A DNA stretch of 4,719 nt from a virus (IMGVR_UViG_2706794668_000007), one strand, 5' to 3'. Numbered from the stretch's first letter, positions 1 through 3,953 are shown. Notes: generated from the letters alone by a model not told the origin. Made by a program: numbers and translations.

Positions 1-760
1 GGGGAATATCTCCCCGGCAGCCTTCAGGGAAAAATATCATCAGATGGCTGCTTAAAAAAAGAACAAATGGTAGTGTCCGCTATTGCCAGTACACCTCAGG
101 ATAGCGGTCATGTGATGCCGGTTTCCCGGTAACTCAGCACCGGTATCTGAGTCAACGTTTTCTCTACTGGGTCATTTCCGATACGCCCTGCCTGCTGACA
201 GGCTTTCATCACATCTGAAAATATAGCACCCTGACTGATACTGTAGTACCTAAGGTTCCAGAAACTGTGATGTATCCGGNNNNNNNNNNNNNNNNNNNNN
301 NNNNNNNNNNNNNNNNNNNNNNNNNNNNNNNNNNNNNNNNNNNNNNNNNNNNNNNNNNNNNNNNNNNNNNNNNNNNNNNNNNNNNNNNNNNNNNNNNNNN
401 NNNNNNNNNNNNNNNNNNNNNNNNNNNNNNNNNNNNNNNNNNNNNNNNNNNNNNNNNNNNNNNNNNNNNNNNNNNNNNNNNNNNNNNNNNNNNNNNCCAT
501 GGTTCTTTCCACCATCTGAAAAATAATTCTTTAAAATACCTGACATGTAATACAGAAAAAACACAAAACCATACCTTAAATAAAAACCTGATTATCAAGC
601 AGATATGCATGGATAAACTACAAGACGAGATATAAACCACCCTGCATTTAAATAAACAATAAACAACATCAGAAAAATAATTCTGCTCTATGGTTTACAT
701 TCAAAAATATCATTTATACTTTTCAGAACATCACCAGCAAGGCATAAACAAGGAAACTAA

Positions 761-1096
761 ATGAAGTGGATTGTGATTGATACAGTTATCCAGCCATCAT
801 GCGGAATATCTTTTTCAGTCATATGGAGTAAAATAAAATTAATAATCTGGTATCAATCGGATGCTTTCTTACCTCCTGAAAGTATATTTACACTGACTCA
901 CACAGGCATCATGCTCAATAACAAAGTGCTACCTGTAACCATTTACAACGTAGTACCATTCAATAAAACATTCTGGAATTCAATCAAAAATAGCCAGGAA
1001 TGCCCTACAAATACAGATAACGTATTGAATGAATGCTTTAATAACCGTTGCACTCTGCAAATATGTCCTTATGGACTAAAACAACAAAGTCCATAA
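761..1096 (+). CDS. Hypothetical 111-aa protein encoded in the AT-rich island; unknown function
   Basis: ATG at 761 is preceded by AAGGA (751-755) at 5-nt spacing. Open frame runs to TAA at 1094-1096. The protein has a hydrophobic N-terminal stretch and five Cys, four of them in the last 31 residues (ECPT, NECF, NRCT, ICPY). Six of the Ile codons are ATA. I recognise no homolog. The orientation is opposite to the phage late operon. Caveat: in AT-rich DNA open frames arise easily, and the last 10 codons lie inside a 12-bp inverted repeat. Confidence 0.4.
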
Positions 1097-1099
1097 GGA
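1066..1099. repeat. Perfect 12-bp inverted repeat (tccttatggact / agtccataagga) with a 10-nt loop; overlaps the stop codon of ORF 761..1096
   Basis: Arms at 1066-1077 and 1088-1099 are exact reverse complements. No clean U-tract follows on either strand. Confidence 0.6.
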
Positions 1100-1115
1100 G
1101 TTTACTCACATCTGA

Positions 1116-1152
1116 CAAAATCAATATAAACAGCCCCTCCGGAGAGGGGCTG
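1116..1152 (-). terminator. Intrinsic terminator-like hairpin closing the tRNA-distal segment
   Basis: 9-bp GC-rich stem (1131-1139 cagcccctc / 1144-1152 gaggggctg) with a 4-nt loop. On the minus-strand transcript it is followed by TTTATATTGATTTTG (1116-1130). On the plus strand no T-tract follows, so the orientation is minus. Confidence 0.5.
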
Positions 1153-1347
1153 GAGAGTGGCGCTATGTGCCATTGCATGGTGCCGGGTGCCTCCCGGTGA
1201 ATTCAGTACCAGCACCTGAATCCGCGATTATCCCATATACCTACTCGCTGATTGCCCCTCCGCACAGGGGGATTCACCATGCCAGTTTCTTTTAACAAAC
1301 TCCCCGCAAAACAGACAACTGTCAACCGTCTGAATTGTGAGACATTT

Positions 1348-1373
1348 AAAAAAAAGGCCCGCAAAAGCGAGCC
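1348..1373 (-). terminator. Rho-independent terminator 15 nt downstream of the tRNA-Arg 3' end
   Basis: Minus-strand RNA reads GGCUCGC-UUUU-GCGGGCC (7-bp stem, six Watson-Crick pairs and one G-U) followed by eight U (plus-strand A-run 1348-1355). Confidence 0.65.
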
Positions 1374-1387
1374 AGGGAAAATAAGTG

Positions 1388-1464
1388 TGGCGCGTTGTAC
1401 TGGATTCGAACCAGTGACCGATTGCTTAGAAGGCAATTGCTCTGTCCGGCTGAGCTAACAACGC
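1388..1464 (-). tRNA. tRNA-Arg (anticodon UCU), 77 nt with encoded CCA
   Basis: Reverse complement of 1388-1464 is GCGTTGT TA GCTC AGCCGGACA GAGC A ATTGC CTTCTAA GCAAT CGGTC ACTGG TTCGAAT CCAGT ACAACGC G CCA. It folds into a full cloverleaf: 7-bp acceptor, 4-bp D stem, 5-bp anticodon stem, loop CU-UCU-AA, 5-bp T stem, T-loop TTCGAAT. Its position downstream of Q matches the rare-codon tRNA clusters (ileZ-argN-argO type) of Stx-like lambdoid phages. Confidence 0.85.
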
Positions 1465-1477
1465 ATGATGCAGATAA

Positions 1478-1512
1478 TGGACCGCCATCGGGGACTTGAA
1501 CCCCGCGCAGCC
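1478..1512 (-). tRNA. Second tRNA, 3' half only (T-arm, acceptor 3' strand, discriminator, CCA); 5' half lies in the N-mask; isotype undetermined
   Basis: Reverse complement of 1478-1505 reads CGGGG TTCAAGT CCCCG ATGGCGG T CCA, a canonical 5-bp T stem with a 7-nt T-loop, then a 7-nt acceptor strand, discriminator and CCA. It ends 13 nt upstream of the tRNA-Arg 5' end. The anticodon is masked. Confidence 0.5.
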
Positions 1513-1750
1513 NNNNNNNNNNNNNNNNNNNNNNNNNNNNNNNNNNNNNNNNNNNNNNNNNNNNNNNNNNNNNNNNNNNNNNNNNNNNNNNNNNNNNNNN
1601 NNNNNNNNNNNNNNNNNNNNNNNNNNNNNNNNNNNNNNNNNNNNNNNNNNNNNNNNNNNNNNNNNNNNNNNNNNNNNNNNNNNNNNNNNNNNNNNNNNNN
1701 NNNNNNNNNNNNNNNNNNNNNNNNNNNNNNNNNNNNNNNNNNNNNNNNNN

Positions 1751-2328
1751 GCCCGAGCGCCAGTGCCGCTTTCACTGTCGAACCCAACCCCATGAAAAAA
1801 TCTGCAATCAGGTCACCCGGACGACTGCTAGCGCTGATTATCTGCTGCAGCATTTCTGCCGGTTTTTCGCACGGATGTTTCCCGGGATAGAACTGCACCG
1901 GTTTATGCGTCCACACATCGGTATACGGCACCTGCACCGTCACGCCAAAATACCGCCGCAGATGTTTATATTCACTCAGCAGCTCCGCATACTGCCGGTT
2001 CAGTGAGGTATACGTATCCACCAGCTGGTGGTGGAGCTTTTCCAGTTCACCACGCCGATGCTTCTCTTCTGCCACCCGGGCAAACAGCGCCTGTAATTTC
2101 AGATAATCGCTTTCATTCGGCAACTGCCACTGACCGGCACTGAACCAGTGCGACACCATGTTTTTCTTTCCTGTGGCATCTGCAATCTGTTTTGCCGTTA
2201 TCCCCAGGGCAGCTCGCGCATCACGAAAGTAAGAAATCAGCGGGGCCATCACATGCTGTTTCAGTGCACTGCCCTTCGCCGCATACCCGGCATCTTTCGG
2301 ACGATACGGCCCCTGATAATGTTCCGCG
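1751..2328 (-). CDS. DNA methyltransferase, beta-class N6-adenine/N4-cytosine family (N6_N4_Mtase-like); internal fragment with both ends N-masked
   Basis: The visible 192 aa contain HPCEKPAEMLQQIISASSRPGDLIADFFMGLGSTVKAALALG, which matches the HP-x-x-KP ... GD-x-V/I-x-D-x-F-x-G-x-G-S/T-T AdoMet-binding block of this family. In beta-class enzymes that block is C-terminal, so the catalytic DPPY-type motif should lie upstream in the masked block 2329-2578. The 409-aa frame in the ORF track (1455..2684) is an artefact of reading through N and through the tRNA. Confidence 0.85.
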
Positions 2329-2857: not shown

Positions 2858-2977
2858 GTCTTTTCCTTTTCCGGTTAACGTGACACACCAATAACTCTTG
2901 TCGAAAAAGCCAGCAAGCTGAAAGACAGGTATTCACCGCCACCAGCGCGTTTACTGTACTGACGCGATTTCAGTCAT

Positions 2978-3001
2978 AAAAAACCCGCTCGGCGGCGGGT
3001 T
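2978..3001 (-). terminator. Rho-independent terminator about 40-60 nt downstream of the pR' start (tR'-like)
   Basis: Minus-strand RNA reads AACCCGC-CGCCGA-GCGGGUU followed by a U-run (plus-strand A-run 2978-2983). Its position shortly after the late promoter matches the short terminated pR' transcript of lambdoid phages. Confidence 0.6.
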
Positions 3002-3036
3002 GTAGAAACTCTTCTAACGTCAGGCATAAAACGCCC

Positions 3037-3076
3037 ATCGTTATGACGAATTTACCACAGATTCCGGAAAAATCAA
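3037..3076 (-). promoter_or_regulatory. Late promoter pR' with lambda-type pause element (qut region)
   Basis: On the minus strand: -35 TTGATT (3076-3071), 16-bp spacer, extended -10 TGgTAAATT (3057-3049), then 6 nt and AACGAT (3042-3037). The run GGTAAATT-N6-AACGATGGG is nearly identical in sequence and spacing to the lambda pR' -10 and sigma70-dependent pause element as I recall it. It lies immediately downstream of the Q stop codon. Confidence 0.6.
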
Positions 3077-3081
3077 CCTTG

Positions 3082-3703
3082 TTACCTAGTTACCTTTTTT
3101 AACTGCCGCTCAGCCCATGCTTCTTCAATATCAAACCGGGTCACCAGCGCATCATAAAATTTCTTAACTGTTTTTTCCCATGACGCGCGTGTTATCTGGT
3201 TTGTCACCTCGCATATAGCATTAAATGCCTCCGTTGATGGTAGTCTTTCATAGCCACGACCACCACAACGCTGGCAGTCTCTGATAACAGGCATACCACG
3301 TTTTACCGACTCTTCACGATGAATGGCGACACCACGCCCACGGCAATCCTTACAGGCGGTGGAAACCTCACCCTTTCCGCCACACTCCGGACAGGCAACT
3401 TTTACCACCTCCCTGACTTTTTTCCATTCTTCCCAGTAAGACGGATACACACCTTTCGTACACTTTGCCCATACCGGCGGCTTACCATCCGGATACTGGA
3501 CCTTGTTTGTAAAAACTACGCTTTCAATAAATTTTTCCCCATAGCAACAAGGGCACTGCTTTTTACTCGCTGCGCTGCGGGCATAATCCTCAAAAGCGTA
3601 CGAAGCCATAATGCGCATCACTACCGGTTTTATTTCTGCCGGAAGTTTTCTCAACGCCGCCACACGATCGCACCGACTGAGTGCATAATCTGCCAGTAAT
3701 TCT
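3082..3703 (-). CDS. Q: Late antiterminator Q (lambda Q family), C-terminal 206 aa visible; N-terminus in N-mask
   Basis: The C-terminal region aligns with lambda Q as I recall it: AFEDYARSAA, CKDCRGRGV...DCQRCGGRGYERLP (Cys4 zinc-binding module), and ...FYDALV...KKVTR ending. An extra Cys-rich segment (CPCCYG ... CPECGGKG) is present upstream of the conserved finger. Stop TAA at 3084-3082; last codon is AGG. The N-terminal 19 aa of the track ORF (3954-4011) overlap rusA and are a read-through artefact. Confidence 0.85.
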
Positions 3704-3953
3704 NNNNNNNNNNNNNNNNNNNNNNNNNNNNNNNNNNNNNNNNNNNNNNNNNNNNNNNNNNNNNNNNNNNNNNNNNNNNNNNNNNNNNNNNNNNNNNNNN
3801 NNNNNNNNNNNNNNNNNNNNNNNNNNNNNNNNNNNNNNNNNNNNNNNNNNNNNNNNNNNNNNNNNNNNNNNNNNNNNNNNNNNNNNNNNNNNNNNNNNNN
3901 NNNNNNNNNNNNNNNNNNNNNNNNNNNNNNNNNNNNNNNNNNNNNNNNNNNNN

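Follow-up and report, generated by a model that had tools for sequence, protein, structure and literature searches.

Sets of phage-encoded tRNAs that supplement host decoding are known from T4 and T5, and for some tRNAs of virulent phages of this type an anti-defence role has now been shown. In SfI, Sf6, ST64T, and phage 21, tRNA-Asn and tRNA-Thr lie just downstream of the antiterminator gene Q, and a codon-bias role has been proposed for them (PMC3636060). The closest described system is the ileZ-argN-argO cluster of phage 933W, whose record (AF125520) lists, past Q, pR', qut, terminators, pT, ileZ (AUA), argN, argO, a terminator, and stxA2/stxB2, and annotates pT as a putative tRNA promoter. 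Our literature search on ileZ/argN/argO and the 933W tRNA genes returned nothing relevant, and the tRNAs are not discussed in PMC3430580 or PMC10462455.

We analysed a stretch of 4,719 nucleotides from the viral genome IMGVR_UViG_2706794668_000007, referred to here as the window, in whose coordinates positions are given unless another contig is named. Very probably, it carries the 3' two-thirds of a tRNA operon of the ileZ-argN-argO type that belongs to an stx-less lambda-like E. coli prophage. The window itself shows two tRNAs with their order and spacing, the terminator behind them, and their place downstream of Q; the near-identity of one gene to 933W argO, together with the match of the second tRNA, makes the cluster a member of the ileZ-argN-argO type.

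The locus shares with 933W the order and strand of the tRNAs relative to Q, the 13-nt argN-argO spacer, and the terminator after argO, and pT and ileZ are also found in relatives whose flanks equal those of the window. It differs in that the terminator is followed by stx2AB in 933W and by an empty slot here, in the antiterminator (a 144-aa Q in 933W, a 273-aa Q of family PF03589 here), and in the DNA methylase, which is full length between tR' and the tRNAs here but apparently reduced to a 3' remnant in 933W. SfI, Sf6, ST64T, and phage 21 resemble it in the position of their tRNAs and in the role proposed for them, but the tRNA species are others and the sequences unrelated. T4 and T5 are lytic and carry many more tRNAs, whereas the present phage is temperate, with probably three tRNAs and a lysogeny-active promoter.

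Gene Order and the Empty Cargo Slot

By its ORFs and domain matches, the window is the late-regulatory region of a lambda-like prophage, on the minus strand. Read in that direction, the order is rusA (ending near 3950), Q, pR', tR', a 65-aa ORF, a DNA methylase, the tRNA operon, an empty slot, and STnc100; beyond STnc100 come iraM, in the opposite direction, and then the lysis genes. E. coli TOE17 and other annotated relatives have the same order and continue into esterase, holin, and lysozyme. Window order and the annotation of relatives thus place the cluster on the late strand between Q/pR'/tR' and the lysis genes. This gene order, with the match to 933W, bears out the original prediction of a rare-codon tRNA cluster of Stx-phage type between Q and the cargo slot.

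Antiterminator Q is visible as its C-terminal part (3082..3703, minus; ORF list, PF03589). In relatives it is a protein of 273 aa with a DnaJ-like zinc motif, and the orthologue in a contig of 99.5% DNA identity (L002) scores 180.8 bits against the Pfam model. Its stop codon occupies 3082-3084 and its last codons are GTA ACT AGG TAA, ending, as had been noted, in AGG. Directly after tR' lies a conserved 65-aa ORF (2660-2857, minus; phrog_331, 129 bits), which contains two AGA and two ATA codons, has its own terminator at 2656-2673, and shows a weak match to a TrmB-type winged helix (18 bits, below threshold). An N6/N4 DNA methyltransferase follows between tR' and the tRNA operon; its visible part spans 1751..2328 (minus), and PF01555 matches the L002 orthologue with 152 bits. 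Positions 1500-1580 of the 933W contig (L023), upstream of pT, align to the methylase 3' end of L015, L002, and L003 with a mean column identity of 94%, and 933W therefore seems to be left with a remnant of the gene that is full length in the window lineage.

No stx gene occurs in the window, as had been stated. The cargo slot was located at 1345..1346 by blastn of window 1100-1512 against 933W and Stx2_14040 (L003): in 933W and the Stx2a phage, an stx2AB insert of ~1.33 kb lies between matches to window 1347-1512 and ~1132-1344, the latter match being roughly 70% identical. Since the sequences that flank stx2AB in the Stx2 phages are adjacent in the window (1344/1347), the slot is empty. What follows argO varies among relatives: nothing in the window and L015, stx2AB in 933W and L003, and a 117-aa ORF in L019 and L010. 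This ORF (phrog_2873, 234 bits; L019 2441-2794) sits in an insert of ~640 nt between argO and STnc100 and is another cargo for the stx2AB slot.

The sRNA STnc100 (RF02076; 1122-1311, minus) is present at full length and scores 133.6 bits (gathering score 47). It starts ~45 nt past the tRNA terminator, immediately behind the empty stx slot, and has its own terminator at 1131-1152; in 933W a ~70% related sequence stands just downstream of stx2B. STnc100 has been linked to PasD sRNAs (2026 preprint).

On the other side of STnc100, an AT-rich island (497-1127; 32.5% GC against ~53% around it) carries an IraM paralogue oriented towards the late genes. The iraM ORF (761-1096, plus) matches the NCBIfam anti-adapter IraM model with 162 bits against a cut-off of 121. 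The island ORF had been described as rich in ATA, and 6 of its 13 Ile codons are indeed ATA; its 111 codons include no rare Arg codon, and its GC content is 34.5%. The gene is on the opposite strand and outside the late transcript. L015, 100% identical in all other parts, lacks window 280-1127; in it, 279 is joined to 1128, just past the STnc100 terminator.

The tRNA Genes and the Masked Stretch

A tRNA-Arg(UCU) of argO type at 1388..1464 (minus) is the sole ARAGORN gene call in the window, with its anticodon at position 35 of 77 nt. The Rfam RF00005 covariance model finds the same gene at 1391-1464 (minus; 70.1 bits, E = 2e-14, gathering score 29), so that the complete tRNA-Arg(UCU) named in the original prediction stands. 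Its layout (7/2/4/9/4/1/5/7/5/5/5/7/5/7/1/3) is that of a normal 77-nt tRNA with an encoded CCA. Weak Rfam matches to AaHKsRNA20, Trp_leader, mir-2024, and Yar_3 were discarded; each of them stays under its gathering score and does no more than overlap the tRNA or a terminator.

In E. coli, the identity set by which ArgRS recognizes tRNA-Arg comprises A20, C35, U36 or G36, and a purine at 73. The gene encodes A20, U34-C35-U36, A37, G73, and the CCA end, and thus has each of the Arg identity elements checked (A20, C35, U36, and G73). A20 is present both in the UCU tRNA (D loop AGCCGGACA) and in the UCG homologue of its neighbour (AUCAGGAAA), as the A after G18-G19, and C35 with U36 or G36 is given by the anticodons UCU (window) and UCG (homologues).

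Comparison with the phage and chromosomal genes gave 77/77 identical positions for L015 and for a copy from an Stx2a phage, 76/77 for 933W argO, and, among K-12 chromosomal genes, 56/77 for argU and 41/77 for argW (tRNA-Arg CCU). The lone difference from 933W argO is position 38 in the anticodon loop (window 1427), A38 here and G38 in 933W; L015 and an Stx2a phage also have A38. K-12 argU has the same anticodon, loop (CUUCUAA), A20, G73, and length, but differs by paired changes in the acceptor and anticodon stems. The low identity to argU and argW, with these paired changes, indicates that the window tRNA-Arg(UCU) belongs to a separate lineage and is no recent copy of a host gene.

The second tRNA, an argN-type tRNA-Arg(UCG), is visible as its 3' 35 nt (1478..1512, minus), separated from tRNA-Arg(UCU) by a spacer of 13 nt (1465-1477); its 5' 42 nt are under the mask. 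The visible segments, GGCUGCG, CGGGG, UUCAAGU, CCCCG, AUGGCGG, U, and CCA, correspond to tRNA positions 42-76 and run from the last part of the anticodon stem through variable loop, T arm, and 3' acceptor strand to the discriminator and CCA. By itself the 35-nt fragment gave no ARAGORN call and no Infernal tRNA match, and the call therefore rests on homologues. Infernal hits of the 47-nt visible piece to mascRNA and tmRNA were set aside as sub-threshold matches to the T arm. The fragment is identical (35/35) to the 3' end of a 77-nt tRNA-Arg(UCG) in L015 (3595-3629 for the matching part) and matches 933W argN at 33/35 positions, both differences being in the T arm and one of them making a G-U pair. 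The full-length L015 homologue scores 58 bits against the Rfam tRNA model, its minimum-free-energy structure is a clean cloverleaf, and ARAGORN calls the full-length homologues Arg(tcg); a second, half-masked tRNA had thus been correctly recognized.

The original prediction had derived an unusual C1:G72 start for this tRNA from its 3' strand. Since the full-length homologue begins CCGCCAU, the pair is real. The discriminator is U73, visible in the window as ...AUGGCGG-U-CCA, whereas tRNA-Arg(UCU) has G73. A purine at 73 is a minor element in tRNA-Arg identity, and to our knowledge all E. coli tRNA-Arg species carry one, which leaves the charging efficiency of the argN-type tRNA uncertain. We know of no UCG species of tRNA-Arg in E. 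coli K-12.

Two contigs (L010 4362-4461; L021 1815-1914) have at the middle position a variant with the argN acceptor ends (CCGCCAU...AUGGCGGUCCA), a scrambled interior, and 3 nt of additional length, in which ARAGORN makes no call; it may be either a decayed tRNA or something else that uses tRNA ends. We rejected this variant as the identity of the second element in the window, where the visible variable loop and T arm fit the canonical type and not the scrambled one.

The atypical acceptor end of the UCG species is one of the features that bring to mind a role in counter-defence. Phage T5 uses its tRNAs to make up for host tRNAs that anticodon nucleases have destroyed, and colicin D cleaves tRNA-Arg; by analogy, the tRNAs of this cluster could replace cut host tRNAs, with C1:G72, U73, or loop variants conferring resistance. 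Another is the single difference between the window copy and 933W argO, at loop position 38, which we take to be next to the colicin D cut site. The loop of the window gene, CUUCUAA, is however that of host argU and thus shows no change that would permit escape; a nuclease gene was not seen in the window, and the anticodon set is already explained by the codon-usage signal described below. Such a role is accordingly extremely unlikely. We consider it highly unlikely, too, that the argN-type tRNA is a specialised molecule that escapes nucleases directed at tRNA-Arg, be they from the host or from competitors, or is handled differently by ArgRS and RNase P. If it were, it would be made constitutively from pT and could serve lysogen protection or a translational programme of its own, including the ATA-rich iraM.

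The window contains four N-masked runs (280-496, 1513-1750, 2329-2578, and 3704-3953), the second of which covers the upstream part of the cluster. Relatives were sought with a pattern of both flanks of this run; 19 viral contigs matched exactly, and no exact match was found among the genome contigs scanned. Several of these viral contigs are 99-100% identical to the window across the visible flanking segments. ARAGORN, applied to 7 of the 19, found tRNA(CAU), tRNA-Arg(UCG), and tRNA-Arg(UCU) in that order in 7/7, and the same three-tRNA order in E. coli and Stx-phage relatives. Relatives that share the gene order of the window have tRNA-Ile, tRNA-Arg, and tRNA-Arg in succession. On this basis the stretch 1513..1750 (minus) is predicted to hold the 5' part of argN, a 7-nt spacer, a tRNA(CAU) of ileZ/tRNA-Ile2 type, pT, and the 3' end of the DNA methylase. 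The two tRNAs of the original prediction are confirmed, but relatives have three, and the third (ileZ type, CAU, reading AUA) most likely lies under the mask.

The flanks are 251 nt apart in 19/19 of the exact-flank contigs, whereas the N run in the window is 238. Comparison with loci 99.9-100% identical on both sides gave 238 against 251, 250 against 464, and 250 against 245 for three of the runs. Run lengths are therefore unreliable, and frames and distances across the masks are not to be trusted; for this reason we dropped the length of the run as a gauge of the room for a third tRNA. A 13-nt deletion in the source at 1513-1750 is possible.

Conservation was assessed over 14 distinct variants of the module. 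Variable positions number 9/230 in the tRNAs and 22/60 in the spacers, and the -10 hexamer of pT is invariant; in argN, the stem changes C5 to U and C63 to U give G-U pairs, so that pairing is kept. That the tRNA bodies vary about tenfold less than the spacers and retain stem pairing indicates selection on the RNA product and not merely DNA homology. The differing cargo found right after argO across relatives would also fit a cluster that is mainly a homology anchor for swaps of stx and other ORFs, its tRNAs having no role; the bias of variation towards the spacers and the preserved pairing speak against such a passive passenger, which we regard as exceedingly improbable.

Transcription of the Cluster

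A candidate late promoter pR' was read from the sequence at 3049..3076 (minus). It has a -35 hexamer TTGATT (3076-3071) beginning 6 bases past the Q stop codon, a 16-nt spacer with a TG, and a -10 hexamer TAAATT (3054-3049), the -10 hexamer and the spacing being those of lambda pR'. An element AACGATGGG at 3034..3042 (minus) is identical to the one at the same distance from the lambda pR' -10; compared by eye, TAAATT-N6-AACGATGGG is common to both promoters with the same spacing. In lambda this element is presumably the sigma-dependent pause site where Q loads. The candidate has 8/12 hexamer matches, which is under the threshold of a consensus scan. A MAFFT alignment of the post-Q region with lambda misaligned the promoters and was abandoned in favour of reading the shared motif directly from the sequences.

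A terminator scan found a tR'-like intrinsic terminator (2982..3001, minus) a short way past the candidate pR', and a pR'/tR' pair after Q is plausible. In window 2975-3076 (minus) the terminator is just ~35-60 nt past the candidate promoter. The RNA made from pR' in the lysogen should thus be very short and terminated, far below the lambda 6S RNA or the 258-nt StxS precursor. With the candidate pR' and tR' between Q and the tRNAs, the latter are downstream of the late promoter.

The cluster also has signals of its own. An intrinsic terminator at 1356..1373 (minus), identified by scan and folding and annotated at the same place after argO in 933W, consists of GGCUCGC-UUUU-GCGGGCC followed by U8 (fold -13.8 kcal/mol, z = -3.7). 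In all relatives examined, the sigma-70 promoter pT has a -35 TTGAAG or TTGCAG, 17 nt, and a -10 TATTAT, and stands 9 nt upstream of the first tRNA (ileZ); from the relatives with identical flanks we infer that it is also present under the mask of the window. By dRNA-seq, Sy et al. (2020; PMC7547250) found that an Stx2a lysogen has a primary transcription start located between tR' and stx2AB, and this start appears to drive the tRNAs. With pT upstream and a terminator behind the last tRNA, the cluster forms an operon of its own inside the late operon.

The original prediction had placed the tRNAs under Q-dependent late control. This part of it stands insofar as they lie downstream of Q, the candidate pR', and tR', but it leaves out the promoter present in relatives and the terminator at 1356-1373. 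In its strict form, late control would mean that the cluster lacks a promoter of its own, is silent in the lysogen, and yields tRNAs solely from the Q-antiterminated transcript. The strand and position of the tRNAs suit such an arrangement, and the region just upstream is masked in the window, so that pT is not directly visible. Nevertheless, pT with its invariant -10 stands before ileZ in every relative examined, those with 100% identical flanks included, and is annotated in 933W; the primary start site maps to pT during lysogeny (PMC7547250), and a dedicated terminator closes the unit past argO. We therefore judge purely late expression to be very unlikely.

The preferred reading, an ileZ-argN-argO type operon with its own promoter, would work as follows. 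In the lysogen, pT would transcribe the three tRNAs, and transcription would stop at the terminator past argO. After induction, Q-modified polymerase starting from pR' would pass tR' and the later terminators, and the late transcript would then also carry the tRNAs, to be cut out by host tRNA-processing enzymes. The operon would thus be active in the lysogen, and under Q its output would be boosted by read-through; the boost is what we infer from the order of these signals.

Codon Demand, Distribution, and Possible Beneficiaries

The three tRNAs would read AUA, CGA/CGG, and AGA/AGG. Codon use was compared, per 1000 codons and by Fisher tests, between 22 intact CDS of the 97.6%-identical TOE17 prophage and 19 neighbouring host CDS. 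In this comparison, in which the prophage is a related, defective stand-in for the source genome, the host sample is small, and the result is a correlation only, AGA (8.3 in the prophage, 1.9 in the host), AGG (5.4 and 0.6), CGG (13.3 and 3.4), and ATA (11.2 and 2.4) are 4-8 times commoner in the prophage genes, each with p at or below 2e-6. CGA, the codon best read by a UCG anticodon, is not significantly enriched (4.7 and 2.9). The count of AGA, AGG, and ATA codons suggested with the original prediction, run here on the TOE17 proxy, thus finds all three enriched over the host CDS, which fits the classical idea of codon supplementation. As E. coli core genes use these codons rarely and prophage genes several-fold more often, the cluster would ease translation of phage and cargo genes; we found no experiment in the literature showing that its tRNAs raise phage or cargo expression.

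The module extends well beyond phages that carry stx. Of 5426 complete E. coli genomes, 2963 (55%) contain a 413-nt stretch that spans the sRNA, argO, and a part of argN, with a median of 2 and a maximum of 20 copies per genome. Carriers of the cluster include UTI89, S88, IHE3034, NU14, and APEC O1, which we take to be extraintestinal (ExPEC), non-STEC strains without stx. The cluster is indeed of the Stx-phage type, but given this distribution it is no hallmark of Stx phages alone, and the original prediction was too narrow on this point.

So wide a distribution, with a median of 2 copies, could also mean that the host is the main beneficiary, constitutively supplied decoders of AUA, AGA/AGG, and CGA/CGG aiding the translation of AT-rich acquired genes, iraM among them, by lysogenic conversion. 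Such a benefit would account for the retention of the cluster in defective prophages, as in the degraded TOE17 prophage with its many pseudogenes, where it is intact, and it agrees with the activity of pT in lysogeny (PMC7547250) and with the ATA content and low GC of iraM and its island. Against it, iraM lacks rare Arg codons, and L015 has the cluster without iraM. Host benefit as the main role seems unlikely to us, although it is compatible with, and not exclusive of, the preferred reading of an operon that serves phage and cargo translation.

The module itself is already known and very widespread, and its occurrence without stx is common and ordinary. The value of the present finding lies mainly in annotation, as it identifies a textbook module of lambda-like E. 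coli prophages with an empty toxin slot. For models of these phages, it means that the tRNAs, having a lysogeny-active promoter and a terminator, are not purely late genes, and that the module reaches far past the Shiga-toxin producers, to over half of the complete E. coli genomes.
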